Below, one piece after another: positions 10,701 to 38,417 of a stretch of 64,000 nucleotides of DNA. The position numbers were made by a program, and so were the translations under genes. The stretch covers positions 620,001 to 684,000 of the forward strand of contig OZ237766.1 of the NCBI GenBank assembly GCA_965178125.1, written 5' to 3'. Each line of letters begins with the position of its first letter. The first letter of the stretch is position 1. A model generated the notes under the pieces. It was given only the letters and a program-made list of their open reading frames with translations. It was not told the DNA's origin and did not search any database. The DNA is from Bilabrum cf. latius (Eukaryota).

Positions 10701-13700
10701 AGCGCCAGGGCAAGCCTTCGCTCAGACCACGCGCCACCGTGCAGTGCACCCGTGCAAGCCCTGTGCCCCAGCGCGCCCCACGCCAGCAAGCCGCCGTCAT
10801 CCGTCACCACGCAGCTAGCGTCGTGTTTCGCACATAGCCGTTCAACCCCCAGGGCGGGGTGCAGCGCGCCGCCGATCCCACCTCGGGGACTTGAAGGGTC
10901 GCCCCCCGCCTCGATCTCGTCGATCCCCTCGATCCCTAGCCCCAGCCACCTGAGCTCGTGCGGCCACTGCACTGTCCTGGGCTCGAGAGACACTGTCCCG
11001 GACGAGAGGAGCTCGTCCACACGAGCCATTTCCCTCTCTTCTTCTTCTTTTTCTTCCTTCGCTTTCTCCTCTTCACCCTTCTCTGCCTGCTCCTCCACTC
11101 TCCCTTGTTCCCTGGGGCCGTCCCCCATTGCGGGGGCAGATCGATCTCCCTCGATGGTCGCGGGTGTGCCGCGGCCAGAGGCAGACCCTGTGCCTGTGCC
11201 TGTGCCCGAGGCGGATCCACGGGTGGAGTCGGCCGTAGCAGAAGATCCAGCGGGGGACGGACTGCGGCCATCCGAGCCCTCTCCTGCTCCTGCCCCTGCC
11301 CCTGCCCCTGCTTCCAGCAGCCCCCGTGCCGCCTATTTCTTGCTCCGGATCCTCTCCTCCTCCAGCATCACCTGCCGCTGCAGCCTCCTCACAGTGCTCC
11401 GCTGCACCGCCCCCATCACCAGCCGGGTCCTGGCCCGCCAGTACCGCACTGGGCTGCTCCCGGGGACCCTCGCCCCAAGCTCCACCCCGCGGCCCGACAG
11501 CTGACCCAGGTCATCCAGACCCCAGCCCACCACGCGCCCGTCCGTCGTGCCCACTAGAACGTGGTCAGACCCGCTGGCCAGGGAACACACCATCGCGGGC
11601 TCCCCTCGGGGCCTCCCTGTCCCCACGTCGGGGGATGCAGGGGACGCCAGGGGCACGGGGGTCCCCGCTGGGGACGGGCTGCCCCCGCCCGGTCCAGGGG
11701 AACCCCCCCCGGGGGTGGTCACGGACCCCGTGCCCTGGGACCCAGAGTCGAGCTTTCCCCCGACATCGGCATCGCCCCCGAACCCCACGGGCACGAGGAC
11801 AGGCTTCCACGCGAAAGGAAGGTTCTCCTCCTCTTCGGTAGCGGCCTAGTGCGCCTCTGCGGTGCTCTACTTCTGCTCTCTATCCCCTCCGGCTTGACCC
11901 TCGATCGCTTGTTCTTCGTATTCATCTTCGGACGAAGACGCGGCTTCCACGATCCCACTCGATTCACCCCCCTTCTCATTCTCCTTCTGTTCCCTGGCCA
12001 GCCCGCTGCTGTCAAGGGGCCCCAGCTTCATCCCCAGCTGACCGTACCGGTTGCAACCAAACGCCCACACGTGCCCCTGGGTGGTCAAAAAGGCCGTGTG
12101 CGCCCGCCCCATGGCTACCCGACTCACCCGGATCCCGGCAAGAGGCACCTGCGCCTCCAGCAGCCAGGGCTCGGCCACGCAGCGGCCTAGCGGTCCGGCG
12201 GTGCGGCGGGTTGCGGATGCCGCTGACAGACCGGAGGCTTGGGTGCCCGCGGGGCTGTGTTCCCTGGGGTTGTTCCCCGGGGAACTGCCCTGCTCGATCG
12301 GGGACATCGGACCGGTCCCGTGTTTGGCCACCTTGGGAAGGGCATATTCGGCGGATAGATCCGGCTTGCCCCCCTGCACTGTGTGCCTCCGGGGAGAGAG
12401 ACCCCCTTGTGGGGTCAGCTCCTGGGCGGGGGTGGCGGATGTCCCTGACCCCGGAGAGGGCACGGGCAGCGGGTGAGGGGACTCCCCCTCGCTTGCTCCC
12501 CCCGCAGATCGCTAGGCCCCGTGTGCACGTCCCCCCCGCGTCTTGCCTCGGCCTTGCCCCGACCCGTACCCAGATCCGGAGCCGTACCCCCCCTGCGCCC
12601 CCGATGGCCTCCGTCTGGACCCCGCCCCCATGGACAGCCGCCTGGCACCCTCCGTGGCTGCCCGGGCACGTGCACGGTACTGCAGTGCAGCGCGACGCAG
12701 GGCCTGTGCACGACCCTCTCCCTCCGTGCCGCTGGTTCCGCTATCCCAACCGGCGCCGCGCATGCCGCCCCCGCTCTCCCCACCGCCGCCGCCGCTTTCG
12801 AAACCGGAACCGTGCCTCCCGTGTTCCCCCGCCCCCGGGTCCCCGCCTCCCTGCGCCATGAGCATCACCAGCCCAGACACTGAGGTGGTCAGGGTGGACC
12901 GCCGCCGCCCGGACCCCGCTCTCCTGGCCATTGTGTTCCCCACGGCCCCGCTCATCCTCCGCTCGAAGCTCCCGGAGCCCACCCCGTGCCCTCCCGACCC
13001 GGCGCTCGAGTGGCCGCTACCCGCATCCCCCGCGCCCCTCCTTTGCCTGCCCCCATCCTCGCCGGACCCATCGTCCTCCACCACGTCCGAGGCACCCTCC
13101 CGGGACCGCTCCAGCGCGCTGGGCAGCTCATTCACCACGCCGTGTTCCCTGACCACAGACCCGCGGTGATGCAGCATCTGACCCCCGGCCCCATCCGACG
13201 CCGCGCCCGATCCACCGGTCGGCGAGGGCAGGCCAATCTGGAAGGACCTGGCTCGCCTGCGACCCACCCCCATGCCCATGCCCATGCCCATGCCTCGAGA
13301 CCTAGGCAGTCCCACCCCGCCACCGGCCCCTCCGCGCGATCCGGTCGCAAAGTACCCTGCTGGCCGACCACTCGTCACACTGCCACGCCGCGTGCCATGG
13401 CCCCCACCCGGGGGGGAGGGGTCGGGCGGCGGCACACTGGATCCCCCGGAGCCCTCCCCGTAGGCAGCCGCGGCATCGGCAAGCGCCAGCGCGTCTGTTC
13501 CCTAGAGCGAGCCCAGCCCCGTCCCCTCCGTGTCCTCGGTCCCCTGTGTTCCCTGGGACTCGGCCGTGGATAGCCTCCGTCGGGCCCGGGAGGAGGGCAG
13601 GTCCGCAGACGAGAGCCTCCTCCTGGCGTGCGGGTGCGGGTGCGGCTAGTCGTCCGCACTCGTCACACCATCTCGAGGGACCAGGCCGGGGTCGGGGTGG

Positions 13701-16700
13701 CTGACACCCCACCGGGAGCCCGTTGTTCCCTGCCTCCCTACCTTGCTCTCTCCACCAGCTGCGGGGTCGTGGCCTGCCCTTGCCCCGTCCTGCCACTGCT
13801 GCTGCTGCTGCCCAATCGCATCTGCTGCATCCATGGGCCCGCGGTGGGGGGAACGCATGCTGACGGTGTGACGACGACGGCCCTCGGTCACCAGTCCATC
13901 GCTGCGGGGAGAATCCGCAGACCCCGGTGCCATCCCTCCCGTTGTTCCCTGGCCCCCGTCCAGCCTCCACTCGGCAGGGGGTGAGCCACCCGCCCCTCCC
14001 CCTCCCCCGCTGCCGTGCCGCAAGGGGTGCTGCTGGGGCGTCGTGCCCGCCACCGTCTGTCGCCTCGCCAGAGGGGAGGAGGAGGAGGCCAGCGATCCCG
14101 CTCCATGGGCGTGGGCGTGCCCCTGACCCGCCATGGGCCCCTGTCCCGGGATGACGGGCACCACGGCCCCCGTGACCTGGTGGGACACCCGCCTGGACAA
14201 CGAGAGGGCCATTGAGGTGCCCCCCTGGGACCGGCGGCGAGACCCGGCCATGCTGCCACCCCCACTCGTCACACCGTGGGAGTCCGTCCCGAGCGGGAAG
14301 GCCTGTCCCACCGGCTTCATCTGACCCCCCGTGTGCTGTACCGCCCTTGGCCTCCACTCGTCACGCTCGCTCCCATGGCCCAGCCGGCCCCGCCCCCCGC
14401 ACCCCCAGGTGAAGAGGGTCCCGCTCTGGGTGAAGGCACCCGAGTGCTTGGCCCCCGCCACCACCCCCACCACCTCTCGGTCCGCAAGCGCTCGCACAAC
14501 CCTCGGCGACCTCACGTCCAGCTCGTCACCGTGCCCCAGCCGACCGTGAGACCCCTTGCCGAAGGAAAGCACGCACCCGTCCGCGCATAGCAGCAGGGCG
14601 TGATCGTCCCCGCAGGCCACCCCCAGCACGGCCGCGGCAGCCGTCCACAGGAACCGCTGGGAGGTGGGCGAGGGAACAAGCCGCCAGCCCGCCCTGGCCG
14701 CCTCTGCTCTCAGAAAGGCAAAGGAACCGTCCAGGGCCCGGGAGGGCAACGGGGGCCACTCGCGGGGAGCACCACCATGCAGTGCACCTGTCACCGGCCC
14801 GGCAGGGTCTCCTCCTCGTGGCTGGGGGGCGGCGTGCGCGCCCCACCCCTCGCTCGACTGTTCCCTGCCGCCCCTCCCCTGCTCCCTGTGTTCCCTGGCG
14901 CTCTTCGCTCTCTCCATCCGCCTCCTGCTCGCCTGCATCGCGTCAGCGTGCGAGGCCAAGGGAGACCTGGACAGGGACCCGCCGGAGCCCAAGGAGGACA
15001 CGGAGCCGGGGGCTCGGCTGGGGGCGTGCGGGCGAATCTGAGGGAGGGAATGCTGGGCGTGGGGTGATGTAGCTGATTCGCCGCCGGTGCCCTGACCACT
15101 GCCCGGTGCTGCTGACGACCCCCCTTCCCCCGGGGAAATCCCCCCCCACCATGGGGTCGGCCTGTACTCGAACACGTCCCCCGTGCACGTGACCACCACG
15201 GCGTGTCTTCCACTCGCATCTGCATCGGCCACACCCGCGTGTCTGAGCCACTGCACGGACACGCTGTTCCCCGCCAGGCTGGGTTCCCCCAGCTGCGACC
15301 AACTCACCAACCCGGGGCACTGCCCACCATACCCATTGCCATCGCCACCACTAGCAGACGCAGCAGAAGCAGGCAGCGCCAGCACCCGCACCGGCCTCGT
15401 CTCCGCCGCGGCCTGCATGGCCCGAAGCCGCGCCAGCTCCCGCACATCCGTCTCCTGCCTCGCCCTCTCCCCGTGGGCCTCTGCGCGCCCCGCCGCCAAA
15501 TCGGCAGCATCCTCCAGCTCCGTGTCGGAGGCGGACTCGGAGCCGGAACTGGCCCCGGGGCCGCTGTGTCCAGCCACCACCCCCTACCCCTGCCCCTGCC
15601 CCTGCCCCTGCCCCTGCCCCTGCCGCTGGTGCCTGAGCTCCACTCGGGGGGATCCCACGGCCCCGATGCCCGCCCCTGTCCCCGCCCCCGCCCCCGCCCC
15701 CGCCCCCGCTGCACTCGTCAGCCCGCCTAGCTGCGCCCCGTCCGTCCCAGCACCGGAGCCGATGGGCCCCATGGGCGGGGTCTGCATACCCGAGTGCAGT
15801 GCACCCGTCCCCACCGAGGCAGACCCCACCGCGGGGGCACCCGACGCGGGGAGCGCCACCGCACGGGCACCCGCACCCCCCACGTACCCCTGGGGGTGAC
15901 CCAATGACCCCACATCGGGGTCCCTCAGCCCGCTGGGTGCCTCTGCCAGCATCTCCTCCACGCCCCCCCTCGTGCCCCCGGAAAGAACGCTCGATGCGTC
16001 CCCGGCCCCTTCTGCCCTGGTGCCTCCCCCGATGCCGGACTCGGCCATAGAGTCGCCTTCCTCTAGCACGCTGCCGAGGACAGACCGGGAGGGCCCGCCC
16101 AGCTGGCTTCCGGTGCCCCCACTCGCTGTGCGCATCTCGCTGATGAGCGCCTGCCGACGCGCCTGCCAGGCTTTGTACGCGGCTCGCTCGCGGCGGCGCT
16201 TCTCCCGTCGCTCCATCTTCAACTTGGCTTCTGTTGATAGACTAGGCACGCCTGCAGCTTTCATGGGCTCTTGCTTATCGGAAGCTTTGCTCGATTCTTG
16301 GCTGCTTTGCCTCGAGTGCCGCAACTCTCTTCGAAGGCGACGGACGTCGCCCTTTAGATACTCGATTGCCTCCCGGTACCTGCAACGGCGGAGAAAATGT
16401 ATCAATAGTGTTGCAATTCAGAGGGTATGGCGCGCAACATGGGGGGGAGGGCTAGCCTGAAGACTTCCAGCGATGATGCTTGGATTCGGTATCACATCTA
16501 CCCAAGCTGATCGTAGGAAACGGCGGTTCGACTGTTTGCTCATCTCACTGCCGTTCGAGCTACTTTTTGACCTTCTTGATCTCTCGGTCACGGTCCAGAT
16601 CTTCTCTGGTACCGCTGCGGCCGCTCGCATCCGACTTGCGCCCAGCATCATCGCTCTCAGGCAAGCTGGGGGGCCTGACGCCCCGAGTTCCCCCCCTCCC

Positions 16701-16926: not shown

Positions 16927-19900
16927 TCAATGCGGCGCGCCAACGGCTCCATTTGTATTTGCACCACCCAACCCATCCAGATCGGATCTGGCCAGCACCA
17001 CCGCCCTCACAAGCGGCAGCAGCACTGGCGGCCAGTCCAGGCCGGAGCTTCCGGTCTTCGCGGCGCTGCCGCTACTGCCAGCATCTCCACGCCCCTCGAG
17101 CATCCGCAGCACCACCTTCATCTGTTCCCCAGCCGCCTCCACTGCCTCCCGCTGTGCCACGGTGCCGGTGCCCCACCCCGCACCGGATGCCCCCCCCTCA
17201 TGGTCGCGGCCATCCCCCCGAAGCACCCACGTACTCGTCACACCAACCGCCCCGGCCCCTCCCTGCCCCCACGCCCCCAGCCTCTCCCAACCCCTTCCCG
17301 CCTCCCCCAGCAGCCCATCGCTCAGGGGACCCTCCATCCCACCCATCCCACCGCTCCCAGCTGCACCGGTGGTATTGCCAGCTGCTTCCCCTCTTCCCCT
17401 TCCGTCACCACCCTCTCCCCGCCGGCCCCTCCCAGACTGGGCCATGGATCCCCCGGGTCTCTCAGGACCCGCCCAATCCGCAAGGGCTCGGAGCCCTGCA
17501 CGCGCCTCCCCGGATGTACCACCGTGCAGTGCACCTGACCCCTCCCACAGCCTCACCAGCTGCGAGGCCAGCTCGGTCGCATCGCCGCCGTGCCCCGCCC
17601 CTCCATCACTCGTCACACCTTTGGCCCGCACGGCACCCAATACCACTCGAACGTCGCGCAAGACTGCAGTGAGCCAGGACTCACTCGTCACATTGCGACC
17701 CCCGCACGTCCGTTCGCACGCCATGCATCCCGCCACTGCCAGCACTGCTCCAAGCAGCACCTCCACCTGATCCCACTCGTCACACTCTCCCAGCGCCCTC
17801 ACGAGAGCACCCGACACCAGCTCCACGTCCTTGTCAAGCCACTGACCCCCAGCACCTGTATAGTCTTCATCTCTACCAGAGTGCCCCCGCCCCACACCCT
17901 ACCCGTCCCCACTGAACAGCCCCTCCCTCACCCCTTGCCCCCACTCCCTCCCCGCCTCCATCGCCACTCGCCCCGCCCACCCGCACACAGCCCTCCGCCC
18001 CGCCCGAGCCCCCTCCCTGGCCGCACCCCCTGTTCCCCGCAGTCCCAGCGCACCAGCAAGATCACTCATCACACGGCGGGGAAGCCCAGGGTCCGCTCGA
18101 CTCCGCCGCGGCATGGATCTCACCCATTCACCAGCACGCCTCGCCCAGCGCCACGCAGATCCGCGGGACAAGGCGCCGTCGTGCAGTGCACCCTGACTGC
18201 CACCCATGCCAGCATGACCCGTGGCTGACGCGGCGACCCGCCGCAGCCTCCTCATGACCCGCCGGCTCGCCAGGCCCATCGCTCCCCGCCTGCCACCGGC
18301 GCCCAAGCACCCGCTCAATGCGCCGGCCGCAGCCTGCAGCGCCCCACCGCACTCGTCACACCCTCCACCCACCCCGGCAGGCGCCCTCACCAGCGCCTCC
18401 TCCACCGCCGCGACCGCCTCCGCCTCCTGCGAGGGAACAAGCCCCCTCACTCCACCGGTGGACCGCCCCCCGCCAGCCACCGCCTCCGCCGCCAGCCCCA
18501 CACCATCCGCCCACCCATCTACACCCACGCACCCGTCCACAGCCGCCTCAAGCACCCCCTGGGCCTCCCGAGTGAGCGCGCCTAGGGCCAGGCACGCGCC
18601 CTCGCTGCTGCGCATGGCACCCAGGACCGCACCACCGTGCGATGCACCCTACCCGGCACCCCCCACCTCCAGGGCCTCGACGGCGGCCTGCAGCGCACCC
18701 AGCACGGTCTCGCCCGATGCCAGCTCCAGCGGCGGGCCGGGGTCCCCTAGCTCCTCACTCGTCACACCTCTGGCAGCTTGGCCTGTCCATGGCACATCCT
18801 CCTGCTCCTAGTCAATATCCCCACCCTCGACCTCCTCGTGGCTCTGCTCTTCTTCTTCCTGATCCATTGCGCTGCCCCCCCCTGCACGGCCGATCCCCGC
18901 CCGCATCCCCCCGGAGCCTGAGTCTGAATCCGATTCCGAGTCGGGGCCCGAATCAGACTCCGAGTCGGACAGCCAGCCCCCATTCCCAGGCTCACCACCA
19001 CCGCCACCGCTGCGGCCCACCCCTTGTTCCCTGGCCAGGGCACACACCGCCCCCATGGCCCCCGCCGCCTCCGTCGCAGCAACCCGCCCGATCGAAGCCC
19101 AGGCCTCGGAGAGGAGGGCCAGCCCCAGCAGCCGACCCGCCGCGCTGCAGGGCAATGCACCCAGCACCTGCCTCCGCAACCTCTCACTCGTCACACGGGC
19201 GGACACGAGCAGCTAAGCCGCCCGCACGCACCTCGCCACGGCCGCCCGCCCGTCCCCCCCACCCTCCCTGGCGAGTCGCAACAGGCCAAGCCCCAGCCGA
19301 GCCGCCGACACCGACCGCGTCAACGGGTCAGCCGCCGCCCGCTTGCCCCCGCCCTTGCCCCCGCGCGAGCCCCCGCCGGCCCACAGCAGCGCACCCGCCC
19401 CGTCCACGGGTCCCGGCAGTGGAGGCCGATGCACGTGCGAGTGGGCGGCTACAACCGCCAGCCTTGCCGCCGCCCCGAGCCCGAGGAGTGCGTGACCCCC
19501 GTCCAGGGCGACGGGCCAGGGAACAACCTAGGGAACAGAGTGTTGATGACCAGATCCCCTCAGCTGGGGGCAGCCGCAGCCCCCACCCACTGCATCGCGG
19601 AGCACTGCCTCGGCTGCACCTGGCCCGGCCGGACCCGCTGACGTCACAGCGCGAGTCACCGCGGCCCGCAACTCCGCGGCAAGGGCCGCCCCGGCCCAGC
19701 CCTCCACGCTCACGGGCGCCCCGCCAGGCGAATTGAACCCCGTCACCCCATCCTGCTCGTCGCACCCCTCCTCTGCCCGTGCGGCGAGCAGACGGTCCAG
19801 CTGCCTGCACGCCAGCCCGAGCCCATGCCCGCCCGCACTCGTCACACCTCCGCTCCCCAGCCACCGGTCCTCCGCCCACTGCAGCAGCAGCCCCAGGCGG

Positions 19901-20571
19901 GAGGGACGGGCCAGCGGGCCCGCACTCGTCACACCGTCTACACTCGTCACGACGCTGGACATGCCTCGCACGAGGCCGCAGCAGGGTGCCGCCAGGAGCG
20001 CGCCCACCGTGCGGCCCAGCACCACTCGCCCGCCGCCGCCCCCCTCACTCGTCACACCAGCTGCACCCCGCCTGCAGTCGTCCAGCGATAGACCGGCGGC
20101 CTCTGCCCGGAGCAGCACTGCAGCATGGCCCGCCTCGCGCTCGCCTATACGAAGACGGCCAGTTGAGCTTGCTTCCTCCGCTGTGGGGTGGCCGGGAAGC
20201 TGTGGCGGTGCCAGCCGCGAGCTGCTGCTCATTCCACGCATACTTTGCATTCCCTGAGAGAACGACAGGAGGGCGGATGCCGCTGCCTTGGTGGCCTGCT
20301 GCACGGATGGATGGGCCAGCACTTGCTTCACGGCTGCGTCGTGGGCCGCTGCAACCACCGACAGCAGCTCGGGAGCAGCTGCCGGGGCGCTGTACGCTAT
20401 GAAACCTGCGGCGTGAAATTCACCGCATGATGCCCACGCTGATTCCAGTTCGAATGTGGGCCGATCCGACGCGACGGTCCAGCTGCGCAATGCTGATGAT
20501 AGCGCACGCAAGGAAGCAGCGGCCGGAGTGGGCTTGCCCCCAGACGCTTTAGACATTGTGGTGTTAGGCAT
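16927..20571 (-). CDS. large Ala/Gly-rich hypothetical protein (~1,210 aa or longer; start uncertain)
   Basis: ORFs 19528..20571, 19213..19434, 18808..19206, 17899..18615 and 16927..17895 share one frame and are joined by TAG codons. TGA stop at 16929-16927. The frame stays open upstream through TAG 20574-20572 to ATGs at 20763 and 20880. No domain recognised. Confidence 0.7.
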
Positions 20572-20878
20572 CTATGACTCCAGCCTATCCGCAGTGTAGG
20601 GCTTGGACACACCTGCTGCAGACTTGGCTGCTGGTCGTGCTGTGGGATCAACAGCTGCTATCGCGCTCTTTAGATGTATATCTGTCTCCACGCCGCTGCT
20701 ATCGTTAGATTCTACATTACGCTCTGGATTAAGAGGGGTTAGAACCCAAGAAACTGGATCCATACCGGCCAGGGCTGAGCCGAATGACACGCTGGGTTTG
20801 CTCGAGATGCACTCGTCATCGTGCCAGACCAGTTCGCGAACGGACTGGAACCATTCTTGGCCCTTTGCAGGTGAATCC

Positions 20879-21749
20879 ATGGGGTCCCTATTTTCAATGT
20901 TTGGCGGATCGACCGAAAAAGCAAAGGTTCTTGTTGTTGGGCTTGATAATAGCGGCAAGACAACAATATTGAATCGTTTGAAGCCAGATGGCGTGAGTGC
21001 AACAGGCGCATGCGATGCTTTATTCCCTTCTCGGTGTGGATTCTATATGCATCTGGCGTCGGGTAGTTACATATTCCTTATGGCACAGACTGTTACGGAT
21101 GAGGTAACACCTACGGTGGGGTTCACGGTGGAACAATTCAAGGTTGATAATTTGCAGTTCGAGGCGTTCGATATGGGCGGCGCCCAGCGCTTCCGAACAA
21201 TGTGGGAGAGCCGATACGCGGACGTAGACTGTGTAATATTTGTTGTAGATAGTGCCGATAAGCTCCGGCTTGTCGTGGCGAAGGTGAGACTGCCGTGCCG
21301 TGTCCGCTGCGTGTCGCCTTGGCGAATCCACCCGTCGGGGCGCTCGCCGCCTTGCGTGTGGTATCATGAATCTCAGTCCTGCTGCTCGCTTGACGCTCAT
21401 GTACACCCTACAATCCATTGACCCCCCGCAGGACGAGTTCGACGGCATGCTCGAGAACGACTCGATCAAGGCCCGCCCCGTGCCCGTGCCTGTCCTGGTG
21501 TTCGCCAACAAGATGGACGTGAAGGACGCCATGGACCACGTGGAGGTCTCCGAGGGCCTGGGCCTTGCTGAGCTGAGCGACCGCCCCTGGCACATTGAGG
21601 CCAGCAACGCCCTCTCGGGGGAGGGTCTGGACGAGGGGGTCAAGTGGCTGGGGGCGCAGGTGACCAAGCAGAAGGAGGAAGCCAAGGGAGGAGGAGGGGC
21701 GGGTGCCGCGAAAGGGGGGGCGGGGGCGGGGGCGGGTGCGGGGCGATGA
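20879..21749 (+). CDS. ARL6: ARF-like small GTPase ARL6/BBS3; 3 exons (20879-20992, 21089-21283, 21432-21749), 208 aa
   Basis: MG start; GLDNSGKTTILNRLKP, PTVGF, FDMGG, IFVVDSADKLRLVVAK|DE, FANKMD, WHIEASNALSGEGLDEGVKWL match the ARL6 pattern. Two GTGAG...CAG phase-0 introns; TGA stop. Confidence 0.88.
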
Positions 21750-21908
21750 CACGGCATGCCATGCCATGATTTCGAGATCACAGCGGACCTTGATTGCATA
21801 TTTGGTTGCAGCGAGAGATTGGATCAAATGGATGGGAGAGTCACTGAACGCAAGCACAAGCACAGGCTACACGCATACATTTGATGTCACATCCCCACAT
21901 TGCACTCG

Positions 21909-24900
21909 TCACAGCGCAGGCAGGGCACCCTAGGCCCGAGGCAGCCGGTTGCCGCCGCCATGGCCACCATCCATGCCCCCTCCGCCGCCGAGCGACGGCA
22001 AGCCGCTGCTGCCACCCCCGCCCGGCCCCAGTCCCGGCAGTCCCCCGCCCGCGCTGTTCCCCCCCCTCTACCTACCCACAGATCTTCGGCGAAACGCGTG
22101 CTCCCCACTCCCCCCAGATGGGGGCACGGGGTTCACGGAGGGTAACCCCCCCCCACCCCCGCTGGTACCGCCCATGTTCATGCCCATGCCCATTCCCATG
22201 CCTATGCCCCTCCCCCCGCCCTGCCCCGAGACGGGGGGTAAACCCCCACCTCCACTGTTCCCCCCGATCCCAGGCAACCCACCTCCCTGGCTCCTCCCCT
22301 GTCCCTGCCTGCTCCGGCTGCGACTGCCCCCCGACTCCCTGCTGCCCCCCCCGCGCCCACCCCCACCGCCCAGGTCAGGCAGCCCCCCCCCGGCCCTACC
22401 CCTGCCACCGCCCCCCCCATCCTCCTGCCCCCACTGCCCATCTCCGCACCCTGCCCCTGGCAGCACGGTGTATCCCGCGCCCATCCCCCTGCTGCTGCTG
22501 CTGTTGCTGCCGCTCCCCGCCCGGTGACCGCCCCCGGAGGACCGACCCCTGCCCCTATCCCCCTGCCCACTCCCACTCCCATTCCCATTCCCACTGCCAC
22601 CCAGAGAAGGCAAAGCACCGCCACTCATCGCACCGGAGCCGGAGCCCTGCTTCCCGCCGTGCCCTCCCCCCCCCCTGCCGTCGCCACCATTCGCCCCCCC
22701 CCCTAGCACGGGGAGTGCCCCGCCACCGCCACCACCCCCTCGGCTGTTCCCTCCGCTGTTCCCCCGCTTGGACTCGACCAGGCCCCCAAACCCGCCCCCA
22801 TTCCCGCCCACAGACGGAAGCGATCCGGCGCCCATCCCCAAGCCAGCACTGGCACTGGATCCCGCCCTATGGCCCGACACGCGCCTCGCTGATCCCCGCG
22901 ATCCACCATCACGACCCTCGGACCCCACCCCGATCGAGGGAAGGTTCGCCGGGGTTCCCCCGCCCCTAGAGGAGGATCTGTCCCCGTAGGACCCTCGCCC
23001 GTCGTCGCTCCCATGGTCAAACCCGGTGGCGCTGTTCCCTGCGCCCCCACCCAGGTCGGGCAGCCCCTGGCCCCCCAGTCCGGGCCCCACGCCGCTCCTC
23101 GCGCTGGCCCTGGACCCCTGGCCCCCCCTTGACCCCCCCCTGGAGGCACCGGGGGCCTGGGGCAGGAGCCCCCCCCCTCCCGCCGAAGACCCCCGGCTGC
23201 CCCCCTGGGCCCTCGCCTCCTGCTGCAGCCTGGCGTTGAAGGCGTTCCTAGCCCTGCCCGCCGCGGGGGGCAGCTCCCAGGACTCCTCCTCCTCGTTCCA
23301 CACGGCTCGTTCGAAGATCTTATCCAGCGTGCTGCTGTCCATGAACATGCTCACCAGCTGCTCCATGAGTCTCCGTTCCTTGTCCTGTTCCCTGATCTGC
23401 GCCATCATCTGGTCCCGCTGCCTCTCCGACTCCCACTCGAGGTCCTGCAGCTCCCTCCTGAGCTCCTTCTCCCTGGCCTTGTGCTTGGCTTTCAGACGGC
23501 GCATGAGCTTCTGGTGCTTGTCGTTCAGCTGGGAGAGCTCTGCAACCTCTTCTGCAGCGGCCGCTTTCGCTTCCTCCGCTGCTTTGGCATCCTTCGCCGC
23601 CCTCGCCCTCTCCTTCTTGAGCTGCCTCGCCTTGTACTTCTGCTTCCTCACCGCGTCCCTGGCCTTGGCCTCCGCTGCCTCGGCTGCACGGCGCTGCCTT
23701 GCCAGCTCGGCTGCCTCTGCCGCTTCCTTCTCCTTCTACTCCTCTGACTTGCTGTCTCCAGCACCCGACTGCACCTGCCCGTGTCCATGTCCCCCCGCCC
23801 CTCCGCTGTCATCCTCCCCCTTCGATTCGGATGCACCCGCGCCCGCCCTTGCTGGTGAAGCGCCTTGGGACGGGCTCTTGGACTCGGAGTCGGAAGCACC
23901 ACCGGTTGCAACCGCCGCCTGTTCCTTGGACAGCCCACCGCCCTGCCCCCCGCTACCGCCGCCGTCCCCCGCGCCCGCCACTGCAGCCACCGCAGCCGAG
24001 GCAGGAAGAGCGCCATCGTCCTCGGCGTGCACCTGGGCCTGCAGGGCGGCCAGTTTCGTTTCGAGGGCCTTGCGCGCCTCTCGCTCTGCCTGCAGGGCAG
24101 CTTCGTGGGCGGCAGCGGGGTCAGCGGGGTCCTGAGGTGGCGCTGTTCCCTGGGCATCATCTGCTTGCTGCTGCTGCGGAGGAGCTGCTGCGCCTGCTGT
24201 TCCTTCCTGCCCTGGTGCAGGTGCTGCTGGTGCTTGTGCTCCAGCCGCATCAGCGCCTCCGGTCGGTGCATCCTCCACACCCTCCCCGCTTTGACCACCA
24301 GACGGCGCAGTTGCCCCGCCAGTACCATCACCAGCACCCTGCCCAGTCTGGGTCCCAGTGGCAGGGGTCGAAGACTTGCCCCCGTCTCCGTCCACGTCTC
24401 CCGCGCCCTCCCTACCGCCAGCCCCGCCTGCACCAGACGCAGCACCAGATCCTGCGCTGGCAGCAACTCCTCCGCTTTTCCCGGCGGGTGGCATGGCGGC
24501 GGGTGCCTGTGCCTGTGCCTGCGCCTGGAGCAGCTTTGCAATGGCCTCTGGGTCCGCCCCCCCGGCCGCCTGCAGCTGCTTGAACTTCTCCATCTGGTCC
24601 TGCAGCTACCTCTTGAGCGTCTCGATCTCGTCCTGGTACTCCCTGATGAGTGCATCCTTGGGGTCTTCGTTGATGATGGGCTTGTTCTTGATGCGCTTGG
24701 CACGGTTGGCGTATCGCAGCGTGGACAAGGTCTCGTCGTAGTTATAGTCGGCGGGGCCGATTGCCGCCATCATCACAGTCTTGGTGTTGCCACCCAGCGA
24801 GTCCTGCAGCAGCCGGGTGAGCTTCGAGTCCCTGTACGGGATGTGCTTGCTCTTTCCCATAGCGTTGTCCACCAGCGCCGAGATGACGTTCCCCAGCGCC

Positions 24901-25727
24901 GTCAGCGAGAGGTTGATCTTGATGCCCTCCTTCATCCGCACCCCCGTGGCGCCCGTCTTACTGGGCCTCTCGGACCCCGCCAGGTCAACCAGGTTGAGCT
25001 TGCCCTGCGTGATGTGCTCGTCGCCGTCCTCTCTCTTCTCGCAGGCCTCGATCACCACCGTGAAGATCGAGTGGGACCTAGACGAGGTGGCGTTCATGGC
25101 CGTGGCGCCCGTGGTCCTGTGCTTGTTGCCGCGCTCCATGACCACGTCGATCTCAGACACTCCCTTGCACACGATCTCCGTCAGACCCTTCACGTAAACC
25201 CCCTTGTCAGGCGACTCCTTCAGGTCCATTTTCTGATGCGGGTCCTTGCCAAGCAGGTCCCGGATCTCCTCGTTGTACAGCTCTAGATACGAGGCCCTGA
25301 CCAGGAACTGCTTGTCCGAGTTGGCCTTGATGTGCTCAAACACGTGCTCGATGGCGTTCGGGATGATCCCCCGCATCTCGGGGGGCTCTGGCAGTCCCGA
25401 CATGGTGTGTGTCTTGCCGCAGCCTGTCTAACCGTAGGCAAACATCGTTCCGTTGAAACCCGACAGCACGCTTTCCACCAGCGGGTAGCCCGTCTCATCG
25501 TAAACTTCACGCTACGTGGAGTTCTCATCGTACACGCTATCGAAGGTAAACCGCTTCGGATCGTTGCCTCCGTCCTTTGGGTTTGCAATGCCGACCTAGG
25601 ACAGGTCCACGTCAATGTCAATGATCGGCTTGCGCTTTTCCTTTCGCTCCTTGCCGTTGATCGGTCTGCATCGCACCACCACTTTCACTGTTTCGCCATC
25701 CGCCTTTCCGCTGCCGCTCGCTGCCAT
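21909..25727 (-). CDS. kinesin-2 family motor (KIF3/KIF17-like), 1,272 aa, intronless; 7 in-frame TAG=Gln
   Basis: [27 protein letters not shown][TAG][82 protein letters not shown]. Kinesin-2-like stalk with [11 protein letters not shown], then a Gly-rich tail. TAGs at 25598, 25514, 25430, 24608, 23738, 22070 and 21932; TGA at 21911-21909. Confidence 0.93.
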
Positions 25728-26142
25728 CCTCAGCCCTTGGTCAAGCTGCCGGGCAATTCGAAATTATAATTAATCGCGTCTCAGGAACGAAGCTATAAAT
25801 CGGCCAATAATGATCGCTGATCTGCCAACAATCGAAGCTAGTGTCCGTCACAATACGTACCAAATAGCTTGACAATCCGGCTGAGCCCCTGTACCAACTC
25901 GACTAGGGCCAATATGCATTGAAAGAAAAAAACGGATGGATGCCAACTCTTGTCGAAACAGCACCCTACAAACGGTCGATTGTGCTTGGCATTGCGCAAG
26001 GCTCTGTGTTGCACATTTATTGTATCAGCGCCGAATACAGAAATTTATGGATGTATATTGCACATCGATATCAAAAAATTGCTGGCAATCACTGTGATTA
26101 GATCTGAATCGGCAGGATTGTGGATTGTTGCAGTTGGTGCCA

Positions 26143-27711
26143 ATGAGCTCTCGTGGTGATATCGGCAAATGTGGCGGTTCAGAGCTCCTCTCTGTGGTTT
26201 TGGAGAATGCTACATCTTAGTTTGTATCAGACGGATGGTTTCCGAGGCAGCTTTTTGTAGCGCTGAATTCCCCAGCGGATGCCGTGGCTGTCATTGAGAG
26301 CCCGATGTGCACACACGTCATTGCCCGCACGGGCGAGTACGCAAGAGCGATCACGCTGCAGGACCCCGAATCCAAGGATATAATAGACTGGCGCAAGCCT
26401 CGAGACGTTCTACTATCGCATCCGTGGAGAGTCGCCTGCGCCCTCCCAGGCGGCTTGGCAGGAGCAGCCCCTCCCGCCATGGCAGCAGCGGGCCAGCGCG
26501 TGAAGTTCGTGGAGCCGTGCTGCACCTGGGTGTACGTCGGGAAGAAACTTGCGAGCGCCTCCAAATCCGACGGTCTCGCCCCGGACGGCTTGCCACGCAT
26601 GACCCCAGAGCAGCAGCTCATGCTGCCATCGCCGTCCGAGGACCCCCCCGCACCCTCACTTCCCCGGGGGTACACCCTGGACCGGTTGCGACCGCATCCC
26701 GATCTGGAAGTCGATGGGGAGGGCAGGCCGGTTCCTGGTCCGGACGCGCTTGCCGTTGCCGCTGCCTGGAAGTATGCAGGCCCGGGGACTGCATGTGCCA
26801 TGGAGGCCCGGCTCAGGGGGAGGGGAGCAGGGGAGAGGGGAGGGGCAGCGCTGACGGTGTGCGTGCGATTTGGTGAGGAGATTCAATCGGATGGTGGAGG
26901 CGGGGTGGAGTCAATTGCAGGTGCAGTGTCTGAAGCAGGTGCTGCTTGTACTGGGCCCCCAGCATCTTCGTCCTCGTCGTCGTCCTCGTCATCAGCAGTA
27001 GCAGTAGCAGCGGCAGCGGCTGTGTCCCCCGCAGTGGGCTGGTTCATCCGCAGACCGGATGGTTCTCTTGGTCAGCTGCACGTGCTGGAGGCGCACAGGA
27101 GGAAAGGACTCGCGCGGGCGCTGGTGAGAGAGGGGACGAGGCTGGTGCTGGGGGTAGAGAGGAGGAGAACCAATGCGCTGCGAGGGTTGCAGGACGTGGT
27201 GGCAGTGTCGGCGGGGAGGAGGGGCGGGGCCTCACCCGGGGCTGCTGATGAGGGTGCTGGCGCTGGTGACTCGATTGAGGGTGCTGGCGGTGGTGATTCG
27301 GTTGTTGCTGAGGGTGCTGGCGGTTGTGATTCGGTCGAGGGCAAGGTGGTGGCATACTGGCTGGCAGGGGAGGAGGGTCTTGCATGTGGTGCTGGGGAAG
27401 GGGGTCATTGGAAGGATAAGCACGGCAGTCCAGTGCATAGTACTGGTGGAAGCACAAATGCATAGGCTACTAAGGTGACAATAGTAGCCGATGGGCCTTA
27501 GACAGATGAGACAAGCGACAGCACCAGAGGACCGGCGGATCCAGCTACAGTATCGTCTGCCCCCGCGCTAGGAATAGCCCCATTTATCGACGCAGCCGAC
27601 TACAACGAGGCCTCTCGTCTGCTGTTCAGACAGGAGGGCTACTTGCCCGTGTGCAGGGCCACTTGGATCGTGAGGGTGAGGGGGGAGGCAGAGGAGGGGG
27701 GGGAGACTTGA
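26143..27711 (+). CDS. GNAT-family acetyltransferase (glycine N-acyltransferase/FR47-like C-terminal domain); start uncertain
   Basis: Acetyl-CoA motif A is GSLGQLHVLEAHRRKGLARALV. Reading TAG 27463 and 27499 as Gln adds the missing motif B, PFIDAADYNEASRLLFRQEGY, before TGA 27709-27711. Confidence 0.72.
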
Positions 27712-27864: not shown

Positions 27865-29227
27865 TCACTTCCCTGCGGCCCTGGCTTTGGCCGCCTTTTG
27901 CTTCTCCATGTAGGCCAGCCTCGCTGCAGCCCTTGCTTCCCTGCTGCTGCCGGCACCTGCACCACTGCCGCCGCTTGAACTGACCTTACCCCCAGCACCA
28001 ACCTTGCCTCCACCAGCCGGAGCCGCTCGTCGAGCCGCGGGCCCGGCCGATGCCGCGGTCTTTGCCCCACCCACGCGGCCTCCGACGGTCTTGTGCACCC
28101 GCCTGACCCCCCCCGTGCTCGCTACCCCCCCCTTGACGTTCTTGCTCACGCATGCCCCCCCCGTGCCTCGGTGCACCCCCCCCGGACCGGAACCGTCCAC
28201 CGCCCGGATCGCAGACCGACCCTGACCCCCCATCCCGACGAACCCATGGATGTTCCCACCACCCCCTCCGCCCCCGCCGCTGGTCCCCCCCCTGGCCCCC
28301 CTCGCGGGAATCCTCTTGCTCTCGTCCAGCACCCTTCCCCCCCTGGTGATGTCCTTGGCGCCTCCCAGCGTGCTCACCACCCCTTTGAACTTGCCAAACG
28401 TCACTCCGGGGGTGCTCCCTTTCTCGCTCGCCTGCGTCGTGATGGCCCTCGATCGGCCCTGCGTCACCTGCCGGATGTTGCTGCCCCCAGAGCCGCCCCC
28501 GCTGCCAATGCCAATGCCGCCGACCTTCTTCCGCTGGGCTCCCGCGGCCCCCACGCCCCGCTTTGCCCCGCCTGCCCCGATGGAACCCGCCTTCACCTTG
28601 GCCCCTGCCTTGCCCGCCTTCCCCGCAAATACCCCTTTGCTCCGCTTGGGACCGGCCCCGCCACCACCGCCCCCCCGGCGGCCCTGGGGGAAGGCAGATT
28701 TGCCAGAGCCGCCGATAGACTTGCCCGCTCCGCCGGGCTTTGCTATGCCCCCGTCCTCTCCCAGGGTGACCATCTTACCGCCCTTCATGACCGTGACACC
28801 GGAGCCGGCACCAAGCCGCCCACCGCGCCCGGAGGATTCCTCGATGGCGCCAGTTCCGATGTGCTCTGCCACCGGTACGTCGCCCATCCCAGCGCCTTGG
28901 AGCGACTTTATATGCTTAAACATGCCTGCGCAGTGCAAAGCAAACGATGGAAAACATGGTGGAAATGTCTCCTAGAGATGTGATGTCGCACATTCTGGCC
29001 ATCCATTCGTTGGCCGGGTTGCATGGATAGAATGCAAGGAAGAATTGAGTAGGGTCAAATACGCCAATAATACTAATCTCACCCCCTGGGGCCCCTAGGC
29101 CAGCCTCTTTAGCAGCATTGATGTACTTATCAGACAAAACAAGGCAGCCATCTCGGTGACCTTTACCTCCTTCCATTTTCTCCATCTTTCCCGTGACAGG
29201 GTTGATTTTCACTGGAGCCCGTGACAT
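27865..29227 (-). CDS. Gly/Lys/Arg-rich low-complexity hypothetical protein, 401 aa; 2 exons (29227-29083, 28925-27865)
   Basis: ATG MSRAPVKINPVTGKMEK...; a phase-1 GTGAG...CGCAG intron (29082-28926) joins ORF 28916..29347 to ORF 27865..28938; TGA stop. Confidence 0.7.
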
Positions 29228-29444: not shown

Positions 29445-32400
29445 TTACTTCTTTCCTTTTCCTTTTCCCTTCTTCCCCTTGCCCCCGCCCTCGCTCGATT
29501 CCTGCCTCCCGCCGCCCAGCGCAGCCTCGTAGGGCCCCGCGAAGCACCTCACGGGCCCCCTCGTTGAGAACACCGTCACCTCTACCTCCACCGCAACTCC
29601 GGCGCTACCGCCGTCGTGTTCCGATTTGCTCTCCCCCTCTTTCTCCTCCCCATCGAGGTCCACGTCCACGTCCGGGTAGGCAGGCGGCATCCGCAGCCGG
29701 ACCGCCTGGGACTCGTCCATCCCCAGGGGGGGCGCGCTCGTCGCACCATCCTCACTCGTCACACCGATGGGGGGCACGGCGAACACCTCGGCCCGGATGC
29801 GGATCCACGGGCGGGGGCACGGGGGCAGCACCACCGTGTGTTCCCTGCCCTGGGCCCCGTCCAGCAACACCAGTTCCCTAGGGAACAACGAGAGGGCCCG
29901 CCCGTCCATGGCTTGTTCCCTGGCTTCGAGGGCCTCCTGATCCGCCCGTGCCTTCTCCTCTTGTTCCCTGGCCTACTCCTCGGTCCGGCGGGGATTCCCT
30001 CCCTTGGACCCTTTCCCCTGCTCCTTGCCACGGGGACTGGCGCTCTTGCTACTGCTCCTGCTACTGCTCCCACTCTTGCTCTTGCCACTTCCATCTCCGT
30101 CCTATTCGCTTCCTTGCGACTTAGAAGGGACCACCACTCTGCCCTCTGATCCGATCTCCACCCTCGCGGACGCCCACAGGGGGGCACCCACGAGCCGGAG
30201 CCGCACGGCGTACGCGTCGGCGGCCGCTGCGTCCAGCCACTCGTCCAGCGCCACCGTGCGCGCCACAGTGCACTGCACCCTGGGCCGCAGCACCGACACG
30301 AAGCACGGAAGCGCCGCGATGCGATGCTCCGTCCTGCTCGTCACATCTATCCCGCAGGCACGGGCCCCCGGGGGTGCCACGGCAACCAGCTGCCCGGCCC
30401 GGCTCCCATCCGGCCCCGCATCCCACCACGGCTCCTCCTCACTCGTCACACTATCGTCACTCGTCATGCTAGCGCCCCACAGCGCCTTGCCTCTTGGGAG
30501 CAGCAGCACCCCGGCCTCGTCCACGGCTCGGGGAACACACAGGGGGCCCTGGGAGGCGAGCAGCAGCGGGGGAGGGGCGGCTCTCGCAGAGGGGGGGGAC
30601 AAAGAAGCCACCAGCTCGGGGGGGGGCTGCACCACCATGCGATGCACCCGAAGGCCTAATGCGGACAGGCAGCGGCTGCGAGTCCCGGCCACTAGGTTCA
30701 GCCGATCAGCACCCCCGTACAGTGCACCCGCCGCCGTGACCTCGCAGCCTGCCGGGCACCGGATCCAGGCCAGCCCTGCCAGAATTCCGGAGGTTCCGCT
30801 GCCGCTTGGTCCGGAGCGGCGCCGCGCATCAGGCGGGAGCATGTCGTCCAGTGGCAGCAGCGGAACTGCAAGGCGCACCGTGGCACGGGAATGCGCGGCG
30901 CCCGTTGCGGAGCCGGTGCCAGGTCCTCCTGCCGCTGCCGGCGCCACGCCCCCGAGTGCACTGCACTGCGGCGGGTCCAGCGCATGCAGGGAGGGCGCCA
31001 AGTCAACGGCTAGTCCGCTGCACGCACCCGCGGGTAACTCCGCACCACCGTCATACTCGGCCCCAGGCTACCGTCGCACGGTTGCGGTGACGGCAGCGCA
31101 CAACGTCGCATCGCCGGCCCCATCGTCATCCTGCTCGGATGCTTTCCCTGCCCCATTCCCACTGGCTGCCGCAGCCGCATCGCCCGAGTCCCCTTTCCCC
31201 TTCCCCTCCCCCTTCACCCACAAGGCCAAGAAGACCCCCCCGTCTCTGGCCCGCTGGCCCACGGAGCCGTGCACCGCCCACCCAACCGCCGGGCCGCCTG
31301 GCTCTGACCCGAACGGCTCCGGATCTACCTGGTCTGCATCGGAGGAAGCACCCCCACCCGCACCCCCGCCCTCACTCGTCATCATGCCTCGCTTGACTCC
31401 CTGTGCCCTGGCATACGCGTCCCACCGGCCTCCGACCGGCCCCCCAGCCAGCACCAGCACAGAGGCTGCCCCTCCAGCCCCTAAATCCCCCCCGCTATGG
31501 GCCCCTTGTGTTCCCTGCTGGTGGGTGAGCACTCCCACGGCATGCTCCAGGGAACACAGCTGCTCCAGCCCCCTCGCCCCGTGCGCCTGCAGCAGACCCC
31601 CCGCCGTAACAGAGTGGCGGCCCAGGGCCCGGGACGCCTCCTCTGTGCCATCGTGCAATGCACCCAGTGGTCCATCCAGAGCCCCCGCCCCACACATCAG
31701 CACCCTGGGCCCGGGGCAGAGCGCCACCACACCCCTGATCCCATCACCATCGTGCGATGCACCCACCAGCAGCGAGCTGGCCCTTGCGGCTCCCGGGCAA
31801 GTGTGAACCGCCCACACTGCTTCCGCCAACCGTTGCAGCACTGGCGCGGGAACGGGATCCATTGACCCTGCACCCGCAGCAGACGTTGTTCCCTGGGCCC
31901 CCGTCCCGCCGGCTTCCTTACCCTTCTTTCCTTTCCCTTTTCCCTTGCCCTTGCCCCCCGAACCCCCACCACCACCGCCGCCGTCACCCCCGCCCATGGC
32001 CGCCTCGATCGCTGCCTGCGCCCCCGGTGCATCCACCCTCAGGCCCAGGCTGGCCGCGACCTCCACCCGCCTCACCTCCCGCTGGTCCTCGAGCAGGTCC
32101 CGGCACCGGCGCGCCACCGCCGCCGCGCTCACCACCTCCGTCACCTTGCGCTGCAGTGCAGTGCACGGGGTGGAGCCCCACCGCGGGAGCGACCGAAGCG
32201 CGGCAGTGACCTCATGTCCGAGCGGAGAAGACCCCTCGCCCTCGCCCTCGTCCTCCTTGCCTTCCCCCGCACCTGCGGCTGGCCCCCTGCTGCCGCTGCC
32301 CCTGCCGCTGCTGTCCAGAGGCTGCAGCACTCCACCCGTCATCATCTCCAGGCACAGCGCACTCGTCACACGGTCCGCGCCCCCGCACGCCTCGAGCACA

Positions 32401-33773
32401 GCAGCCAGCAGGTACCCCGGCCACAGGGCGATTTGTCCGCTGGGGTACACAGCCACTGGTGTGACGAGTGCAAGGGTGGAGTCCTACTCCCCTGCACCGG
32501 CACCAGTGGAAGCGGCAGCGGCATCGTCCTCGTCTTTGCCATCATCACCACTGCCTGCCTTCCCCTGGCCCTGGCCCTGACTCGCCTGCCCATCGGTTGC
32601 AACGGCCGGCAGCCTCCCCCCCTTCACGACGAACCTTCGCCAGCGGCCCTTGACGAATAGAGCCACCACTGCATCCGGGGCACGGGCGCGACCCTCTTCC
32701 TCGTCATCGACATCGCCATCTTCATCTGCATCTTCGGTACCTGTCCTCCCGAGCGGTTCGCAGCGAACCTTCTCTCGGCCCAGCATCCAGTCAGCCTCCA
32801 GCAGCTGCAGGCCAAATGGCACATCGCCCGGCGAGTGCTCACCATCACCAGCGCCAGCACCTGCACCTGCACCCGATTTCCCGCCGCTATCACCCGATGC
32901 ACTCTCCCCACTCCCGCTTCCCGTATCACTCGTCACACCGGACGCCCCCACCCTGCCTGCCAGACGGTCCAGCGGCCCGCACCTGACCAGCTGCCTCGGG
33001 TCAAGCGCCGCCCCCTGCGACCGGGCCATGACGGCGATGGCCCGGCACAGCGCGGCGGTTGCAACCTCAAGGGGGTGCGTGGTATGGTGCGAGTCCGATG
33101 CGTCGGCAGAAGGGGAACCCGAGGAGGAGGAGGAGGAGGCGGCAGAAGACAGGCTGGCATAGGCACCTGCTCGAGATCGGATCACGGCGAGGGCGCTGCT
33201 GGGCAGCCGGACCGAGCAGGCATCGAACGAATCCGATTTGGTGGACAGAATACCCATGACTTCATGCTGGCAGCGGGATTGCCGTAGCGCCTGCGTGGCT
33301 CCCGTGGCAGAGGCGAGCGACGGGCTCCCGAACGAAACGGTGGATGCTTCAGGCGCATCTACAGCGCGACGGGCCGCAGCGAAGAGATCGCGAGGGTCGT
33401 ACAGAAGCTATACATCTCGGACATCTCCGTTTTCTTGCCCAGGTTGCAGCTGCTGCTTCCAGTCCGTGGCGCAGATGCGCACGGACAGGTGCTCGTTGGA
33501 AGCAGCCGCAGCTGCCTCTGTGGAGTCATCCAATGCGGCCTCCCCTTGCTCGGTAGGATTGCCCGCCGTGCGAAGCATGTCTTGCATTTCACGGTCACGT
33601 TGTGCCTCTTGTGCCACCATGGAAGACTCTACTAGCCCTTCCATCCAATCCGTCCCTGCAGCAAGAGTCGTGGCATCCAGCTTTCCGACAAAGTCCAGAT
33701 CCCGCGGTGCCATTGTGGGTGGTGGCAGTGATTCATCAAATTCTACCGCATGCGTATCGATTTCCATGGCCAT
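29445..33773 (-). CDS. ~1,440-aa hypothetical protein with a possibly degenerate calpain/androglobin-like segment; 5 in-frame TAG
   Basis: ORFs 33408..34100, 32484..33257, 31068..32456, 30102..31001 and 29445..29909 share one frame and are linked by TAG. VVALFVKGRWRRFVV...RLP...IALWPGYLLAA resembles the calpain-family 'lf..G.Wr...vDd.lP...lW..LleKA' pattern. Ends at TAA; start uncertain. Confidence 0.62.
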
Positions 33774-34267
33774 GGCAGCCTGTATGAAACGCAGTTGCCG
33801 CAACGGACCTTTCTGGATTATACCAAATATTCGATCAAAAGCACACGTTATCACAATAGCACAGCGTTGCAACCTGGAGCCTACTACGTAAACCCCAAAG
33901 TATGCGCCTTCCCATGCCAGTGCCAGTGCAGTGGTCGCTGCTACTCCATGCGCACGTGCTGGTGCTGGACCCTGAGCCAACTTGACGGAAGATCCGCCCC
34001 TGGCAGGCGCGCATTCAATGGCCTGTCCATCAGCTTCTTGCCAAAGTCCGGGTATTACGGGGAGCACTGTTGTGCGGCAGAAGTGGTGAGATTCATCCAA
34101 TTCTAGCTAGAACGGCCTGTACGAGGTCCAGGATTCGTTTTCCGGGAAAACTTTTCCCCCCAAACAAATTGTTCCGTGTAGTTCAAGCAGTAAATAAAAT
34201 AAAATAATGGTGACGAGTGCGCTGACGGCCCAAATCCTCCTGGCGCACCTTCGCATATCTTGACAAT

Positions 34268-38183: not shown

Positions 38184-38214
<31 letters not shown>

Positions 38215-38417
38215 ATGGGGAGGGGAGTGGATCGGATGGCATGTATTTCGATGACGGGAGGGAGGCACTGCCAGGGGCGGGTGGTGCAGGCGGAGATGTG
38301 CATGACTCGGAGGAGAGCGGGGGAGGGGAGACCGACGGCGCTGGGGGGGATATGCGGTAGAGGAAGGGGCGACAAGGGGGCAGCACGAGGGCCAGGGGCC
38401 AAGGGGCTAAGCTGTGA
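36714..38417 (+). CDS. TMEM53/DUF829-like alpha/beta-hydrolase-fold protein (~567 aa); 3 in-frame TAG
   Basis: VVVLFGWVGCDDKHLKKY, FSNGG, FDSCP, LFVYSKSDLL and FDDSPHVAHMR are the DUF829 motif series. They are spread over three same-frame ORFs joined by TAG 37008 and 37761. TAG 38358 is read through to TGA 38415-38417. Confidence 0.85.

Follow-up and report, generated by a model that had tools for sequence, protein, structure and literature searches.

UAG as a probable glutamine codon in the nuclear genome of a GC-rich stramenopile near Cafeteria

The stretch of DNA considered here, positions 620,001 to 684,000 of contig OZ237766.1 (assembly GCA_965178125.1), hereafter called the window (64,000 nucleotides, with coordinates counted from its first letter), raises the question of whether the TAG codons lying in frame within its long genes, among them a kinesin gene at 21909-25727 on the minus strand, are read as glutamine (Gln) instead of as stops. 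The answer that we favour, with a probability of a little over nine in ten, is a nuclear code that uses UAG as a standard Gln codon, UGA as the main terminator and UAA as a minor one, in a stramenopile that is rich in guanine and cytosine (GC) and lies near to, yet is distinct from, the bicosoecid Cafeteria. A first-pass annotation of the window had already proposed that UAG encodes Gln, and the proposal is supported by conserved Gln columns in the kinesin, by the Gln of a TBC motif, by GQ and poly-Q runs, by the exchange of TAG with CAG or CAA in a related metagenome locus (L001) and by the retention of TAG in contigs from sequencing runs that contain spliced joints.

The kinesin gene encodes a motor domain that is recognized with high significance (Pfam Kinesin, E = 1.3e-120) and has its nearest solved structures in KIF3B (PDB, E = 1.7e-146), KIF3C, OSM-3 and Giardia kinesin-2. 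The protein has the kinesin-2 arrangement of an N-terminal motor nearest to members of this family, followed by a coiled-coil stalk, and in the motor tree it falls with the clade on the KIF17/OSM-3 side. To evaluate the residues 44, 72, 100, 374, 664, 1220 and 1266 that are specified by TAG, we chose 26 homologues by hand among the 120 hits listed, so as to combine close relatives with a broad taxonomic range, and aligned them with the kinesin:

21909-25727, minus strand: kinesin-2 gene, 1272 codons, TGA stop at 21911-21909, no intron seen, seven in-frame TAG codons
25596-25598, minus strand: TAG at residue 44; Gln in 12 of 26 homologues, more often than any other residue, also in KIF3B, KIF3C and OSM-3; CAG in L001
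25512-25514, minus strand: TAG at residue 72; Gln in 24 of 26 homologues, also in KIF3B and KIF3C; TAG also in L001
25428-25430, minus strand: TAG at residue 100, the Gln of the P-loop (AYGQTGxGKT); invariant Gln, 26 of 26; CAA in L001
24606-24608, minus strand: TAG at residue 374, in the neck coiled coil; variable column with Gln 5, Leu 11 and Met 7 of 26; CAA in L001
23736-23738, minus strand: TAG at residue 664, in the low-complexity stalk; uninformative column; covered by contigs of runs X5, X6 and X7 with no differences
22068-22070, minus strand: TAG at residue 1220, in the Gly-rich tail
21930-21932, minus strand: TAG at residue 1266, six codons before the TGA stop and followed by the terminus ...LPAL

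The positions given by the first-pass annotation for the TAG codons of residues 44, 72, 100 and 374 (25598-25596, 25514-25512, 25430-25428 and 24608-24606) are exact, and the near-invariance that it had claimed for the P-loop Gln is complete among the aligned kinesin-2 homologues. Of the other three sites, which it had called commonly Gln, residues 72 and 44 have Gln as the commonest residue, and the column of residue 374 is variable. Both KIF3B and KIF3C have Gln at all three motor-domain sites (44, 72 and 100); OSM-3 has Gln at 44 and 100, Gly at 72 and Met at 374.

When metagenomes were scanned with the kinesin as query, a single related locus came up, the 3321-nucleotide contig L001, the kinesin of which has a motor 92% identical to that of the window protein. 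Frame 1 of L001 is open throughout its 1107 codons, with 11 TAG and neither TAA nor TGA. In the conserved parts of the alignment, TAG 44, 72, 100 and 374 of the window stand opposite CAG, TAG, CAA and CAA, respectively, while TAG 736 and 743 of L001 stand opposite CAG in the window; in the less conserved stalk, TAG 592 of L001 is opposite CAA, and in a weakly aligned stretch its TAG 388 is opposite CAG. The TAG common to both genes at residue 72 suggests that the change of UAG to Gln is older than the split between at least two taxa, namely the window organism and that of L001. A separately deposited assembly contributes the fragment P0393 (343 residues, three member sequences), which equals residues 45-387 of L001 with Met replacing Val45. 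Its ends match TAG 42 and TAG 388 of L001, so that P0393 is exactly the piece between these two codons; it shows that the TAGs are present in a separate assembly and that standard-code gene calling cuts these genes. Such callers break the genes wherever a TAG occurs, so that annotation and phylogenomics of the lineage under the standard code are damaged. A purH homologue, P0122 (96% identical, on a 2013-nucleotide contig), stops right before the conserved Gln-Gln of the window purH (residue 516), either at a TAG or at the contig end.

Outside the kinesin, one TAG of a large RCC1-repeat and RabGAP-TBC protein falls within a known motif:

9401-9403, minus strand: TAG at residue 2288 of the RCC1/TBC protein, the Gln of the TBC motif GYxQGM

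In the alignment with TBC1D14 (2qq8_A, E = 5e-05), this residue stands opposite the Q of GYVQGM, and the arginine-finger motif IxxDxxR is present upstream of GYxQGM. We take the Gln at this position to be the catalytic 'glutamine finger' (YxQ) of TBC RabGAPs. Four further TAG codons of the window sit within GQ dipeptide repeats or a poly-Q run, and the structure alignment of MAK21 to the CBF gene of the window does not span its TAG at residue 699.

The load of in-frame TAG across the window is far beyond chance. It was evaluated in 12 long open reading frames (ORFs), amounting to 12,209 codons, nine of which contain 44 TAG codons (13, 6, 7, 3, 2, 6, 3, 2 and 2) without any frameshift; the other three, purH, orf306 and orf417, have none. 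The final stops are TGA in ten ORFs and TAA in two. These counts bear out the first-pass statements that about 40 in-frame TAGs are distributed over nine genes and that the final stops are nearly all TGA. Besides the kinesin, the genes concerned and their neighbours are the following:

7778-16264, minus strand: gene for the RCC1-repeat and RabGAP-TBC protein, 2828 codons, 13 in-frame TAG, TGA stop
16927-20880, minus strand: ORF of 1317 codons, no Pfam family, 6 in-frame TAG, TGA stop
26143-27711, plus strand: gene for an FR47-like (acetyltransferase-type) protein, 522 codons, 3 TAG, TGA stop
27865-29151, minus strand: Gly-rich ORF of 428 codons, 2 TAG, TGA stop
29445-34277, minus strand: ORF of 1610 codons, no Pfam family, 6 TAG, TAA stop
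34268-36247, plus strand: purH (AICAR formyltransferase/IMP cyclohydrolase), 659 codons, assigned by Pfam, no TAG, TGA stop
36714-38417, plus strand: gene for a DUF829 protein, 567 codons, 3 TAG, TGA stop
38519-41332, minus strand: ORF of 937 codons, 2 TAG, TGA stop
59958-63998, minus strand: MAK21/NOC1 (CBF family) ribosome-biogenesis gene, 5' end beyond the window, 2 TAG, TGA stop; Pfam CBF, and a match of the product to the solved structure of MAK21 (PDB, E = 8.2e-28)

Under the standard stops, no ORF (among those of at least 300 residues) exceeds 674 residues, whereas reading TAG as sense, with TAA and TGA as stops, gives ORFs of 2880, 1616, 1380, 1347 and 1285 residues; if TAA is read as sense instead of TAG, the maximum stays at 674. 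The counts by frame are 44 TAG in the coding frame versus a broadly similar 67 and 55 in the other two, 0 versus 19 and 38 for TAA, and 0 versus 200 and 210 for TGA, the absence of in-frame TAA and TGA and of TAG as a final stop being partly a consequence of how the ORFs are delimited, which leaves the control of ORF length unaffected. Among the Gln codons of the window ORFs, CAG (371, or 76%) dominates over CAA (70) and TAG (44), the latter thus accounting for about 9%.

Conserved termini indicate which codons end the genes. The TGA of purH comes directly after ...FHH, and the same terminus is found in 10 of 10 homologues inspected. The kinesin ends in ...LPAL, six codons after TAG 1266, while its relatives P0003 and P0010 end in ...LPAL and ...LPAI, respectively; this shared ending beyond TAG 1266 argues that the latter is read through and that termination occurs at TGA. 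To judge from these termini, TGA is a terminator in this organism.

Contigs of transcript type provide a further line of evidence, for which the neighbouring Arf gene serves as reference:

20879-21749, plus strand: Arf-family GTPase gene, introns at 20993-21088 and 21282-21429 (GT..AG; 96 and 148 nucleotides), no TAG, TGA stop

The three exons of this gene match positions 3-37, 40-97 and 103-173 of the Arf profile and its spliced frame is open; the joint 20992>21089 is found in contigs of X6 and X7, and the joint 21281>21430 in contigs of X5, X6 and X7, whereas the DNA-type run X1 has neither Arf splice joint. The Arf gene shows that the organism has spliceosomal introns; in the large genes of the window, unlike the Arf gene, no introns are seen. 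Contigs of X5, X6 and X7, which derive from two studies, extend over 24872-25903 (25891 in X6) and, together with pieces across 23192-24846, cover five of the seven kinesin TAG codons with no other letters, gaps or joints, and a contig of X6 (9142-9510) spans the TBC TAG with no differences. The check that the first-pass annotation had suggested, namely that transcripts might carry CAG or splice out the TAGs, therefore turned out in favour of TAG, which is kept unchanged in contigs of the runs with spliced joints. The contigs of X5 and X7 (one study) end at 25903 and that of X6 (another study) at 25891, which is 164-176 nucleotides upstream of the kinesin ATG, while X1 continues beyond; this is a weak hint that these ends mark the 5' end of the kinesin transcript. 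Run X1 shows a very high summed word depth over 21078-21742, within the Arf gene, which probably comes from conserved sequence of other organisms in the run.

Other explanations of these codons have to be weighed against the reading of UAG as Gln. The in-frame TAGs might not be translated as such, reflecting mistakes of sequencing or assembly, RNA editing to CAG, introns that were not recognized or decaying pseudogenes. Nothing in the data speaks for this; the one formal gap is that contigs drop rare variants, with which a minor edited form would be compatible. The same TAGs recur without differences in four runs from three studies, and the relative L001, from other data sets, has the same pattern at partly different sites. 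No joint or gap crosses any kinesin TAG, while the adjoining Arf introns appear as joints, and pseudogenes would also have gained TGA, TAA and frameshifts, none of which occurs in the 12,209 codons. We regard this explanation as scarcely credible. UAG might instead be ambiguous, coding for Gln within genes and acting as a context-dependent terminator near some 3' ends, in the manner of Condylostoma and karyorelict ciliates, or of UAA in Blastocrithidia. Such a situation would not be evident from our ORFs, in which every TAG is read through by construction, and TAG does occur close to the end of the kinesin (6 codons before TGA) and DUF829 (18 codons) genes. Against it stand the ...LPAL motif after the last kinesin TAG, which matches the termini of two relatives, the fact that all 14 genes inspected reach TGA or TAA, none needing TAG as terminator, and the lack of any avoidance of TAG near 3' ends; ambiguity of this kind thus appears highly improbable.

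Scarcely less improbable is the reading in which UAA and UAG both encode Gln, as in the code of ciliates, hexamitins and ulvophytes (NCBI table 6), with TGA as the sole terminator and with UAA too rare to surface in a GC-rich sample. TAA would indeed be expected to be rare in a GC-rich genome with CAA as the minor codon (70 versus 371 CAG); moreover, just two of the 12 ORFs end in TAA and both meet a TGA within a few tens of codons, the ORF of 1616 residues becoming one of 1631 with TGA only. But if TAA were to CAA as TAG is to CAG (44:371), about 8.3 in-frame TAA codons would be expected in the window ORFs, and none is observed (Poisson P ~2.5e-4), nor does L001 have any in its 1107 codons; besides, taking TAA as sense merges no genes and leaves the longest ORFs unchanged or slightly longer. 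With 0 in-frame TAA in 12,209 plus 1107 codons, which is a small sample, UAA is not a sense codon here.

The reading of UAG alone as Gln, with UGA and UAA as stops, has points against it as well. The sampled sequence is small (the 64-kilobase window plus 3.3 kilobases of L001), and the decoding of UAG as Gln is deduced from sequence and contigs. The column of kinesin TAG 374 is so variable (Gln in 5 of 26, with Leu 11 and Met 7) that it says nothing about Gln, and so is that of DUF829 TAG 99, the only other TAG in a stretch covered by Pfam, with Gln 9, Leu 27 and Met 14 of 150 sequences (the best 150 of 269 matches with E up to 0.001). The assignment of the TBC Gln depends on one solved structure at E = 5e-05. 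Low-complexity, poorly aligned parts of the kinesins pair window TAG 664 with ATG, and five TAG codons of L001 with GGA, ACC, GAA, CGA and AGG. The RNA nature of runs X5-X7 is a program's guess, none of them being recorded as RNA, and X5 is flagged as probably DNA. Finally, the definition of the ORFs hides any TAG used as a final stop, so that occasional termination at UAG would be compatible with the data.

Regarding the organism, the GC content of 0.55-0.73 in the gene-rich bins of the window and the presence of a kinesin-2 and an Arf-family gene fit the earlier description of a GC-rich flagellate. Among the matches listed for the kinesin, Cafeteria roenbergensis is the best that carries a name (74% identity), with oomycetes next at 64-69%, and purH is nearest to raphidophytes, oomycetes and diatoms (56-61%). 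A maximum-likelihood tree of the motor (28 rows), a single-gene basis for placement, joins the window protein and L001 in a clade with 100/100 support; this clade, that of Cafeteria and two environmental clades make up one unresolved group beside ochrophytes and oomycetes. These sequence relationships indicate a stramenopile, probably bigyran or bicosoecid-like. The neighbouring kinesin orthologues P0003, P0004, P0005 (Cafeteria), P0007 and P0010 were called unbroken, at 828-1276 residues, which implies that the kinesin gene of those taxa has no in-frame TAG. The proximity of such standard-code relatives could make it possible to date the change in tRNA and eRF1.

The change could have proceeded as follows. 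UAG would be decoded by a glutamine transfer RNA (tRNA) whose anticodon, CUA, differs at a single base from that of the CUG isoacceptor serving CAG, the prevailing Gln codon; recognition of UAG by eRF1 would be lost or weakened; and C-to-T changes would afterwards convert CAG codons to TAG. The inability of tRNA-Gln(CUA) to pair with UAA would explain why UAA remains a stop, and PMC5304391 argues likewise that this tRNA reads UAG but not UAA. ARAGORN found no tRNA genes in the 64-kilobase window, no Rfam family reached its gathering score there, and eRF1 is absent from the genes of the window.

The code proposed here has the form of NCBI table 15 (TAG as Gln, TAA and TGA as stops). It shares with the UAA-plus-UAG codes of table 6 the capture of a stop by Gln, presumably via mutated tRNA-Gln genes, and departs from them in that UAA is a sense codon there, whereas here no TAA is in frame and two ORFs end in it. 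According to PMC11687900, codes with UAG alone as Gln are those of Iotanema spirale, Protocruzia tuzeti and two phyllopharyngean ciliate lineages, and codes with both UAA and UAG as Gln are those of many ciliates, hexamitin diplomonads, ulvophycean green algae, Streblomastix and Amoeboaphelidium, neither set including a stramenopile; the same paper lists UAG as separated from UAA in Iotanema, an uncultured rhizarian, Scotinosphaera and a few ciliate lineages. Iotanema, a member of Fornicata known from its transcriptome, uses UAG for Gln and UAA and UGA as stops, with UAA as primary terminator, and has tRNA-Gln(CUA) as predicted decoder and a T32G change in eRF1 (PMC5304391). The present case resembles Iotanema in that UAG alone is reassigned, to Gln, with UAA kept as a stop; it differs in belonging to a stramenopile, not to Metamonada, and in having TGA, instead of UAA, at the end of 10 of 12 ORFs. 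The combination of TAG as Gln with TAA and TGA as stops is likewise that of Protocruzia tuzeti and the two phyllopharyngean lineages (PMC11687900). Those belong to the ciliates, in which the code has changed many times, whereas the present organism is a stramenopile with its best matches in Cafeteria, oomycetes and ochrophytes. Phages, crAss-like and others ('code 15'), also turn TAG into Gln; they do so with viral suppressor tRNAs in hosts of standard code, while the genome considered here is cellular and nuclear.

No nuclear stop-codon reassignment in a stramenopile or bicosoecid was found in the literature covered, most subscription journals and supplements lying outside that coverage. The earlier suggestion of an independent, undescribed reassignment is consequently plausible, given also the unbroken orthologues of Cafeteria and close relatives, although it falls short of proof on both independence and priority. 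Each of these we consider likely. As for the full statement, that of a first nuclear stop reassignment in stramenopiles which originated independently, for UAG only and to Gln, and is shared by two or more taxa of a bicosoecid-like, GC-rich clade, we lean towards it by a narrow balance. Nuclear code changes are rare, and even fewer of them part UAG from UAA; with a stramenopile, a further major group would join those affected, and there would be a GC-rich counter-example to the link of code changes with AT-rich genomes. If true, it would mean that GC-rich genomes can capture UAG via the abundant CUG isoacceptor of tRNA-Gln.

The window also contains recurrent short motifs. The 10-mer GTGACGAGTG, mostly in the form GGTGTGACGAGTG, has 36 copies window-wide versus 0.12 expected (for instance at 13369-13378, 20046-20055 and 21903-21912 on the minus strand and 37536-37545 on the plus strand), and no copy in L001. 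Within ORFs there are 24 sense copies and 4 antisense, and 19 of the 24 sense copies are in the Val-Thr-Ser frame, so that G-V-T-S-E/D/A peptides recur in proteins with no relation to one another; in MAK21, the copies that were checked fall within linkers that are not conserved. In another frame, the TGA of the 10-mer is the stop of the kinesin, of DUF829 and of six ORF copies of a tandem array described below. There is selection or insertion of this 10-mer at the nucleotide level. Its possible role as an intron boundary was ruled out, with an X5 contig (13392-14376) crossing three copies without a gap and an X6 contig (10328-10921) crossing one antisense copy together with one copy of a second iterated motif. 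The latter, GTGCACTGCAC within GGTGCACTGCACGGTGG, has nine copies, for example at 10739-10749, 17524-17534 and 61857-61867, all on the minus strand, six of which are sense copies in one frame and give G-A-L-H-G/D-G peptides. A related site at 18627-18650 has many contigs of X1 and X5 with loose ends, which suggests that this motif is repeated genome-wide.

Longer repeats are present too. An ORF at the start of the window (1-1256, plus strand) encodes a Gly/Arg-rich and Ala/Thr-rich repeat protein with a TAA stop and contains tandem repeats of 51, 69 and 84 nucleotides (97%, 94% and 97% matches, respectively). The tandem array at 41600-54600 consists of eight units of ~1636-1648 nucleotides that are 91-100% identical, each with a minus-strand ORF of 206-235 residues that has weak, sub-threshold similarity to ankyrin repeats and no in-frame TAG; the plus-strand ORFs of the array, which need 3-6 TAG each, are probably spurious. 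A dispersed direct repeat of 3418 nucleotides at 4111-7528 and 56298-59715, with copies 99.97% identical, has ~41% GC in a genome of 60-70% GC and no long ORF under either code; a partial copy at 3271-3427 adjoins the N gap at 3428-3627. Both full copies closely follow the 3' end of a gene on the minus strand, namely that of the RCC1/TBC protein in one case and MAK21 in the other.

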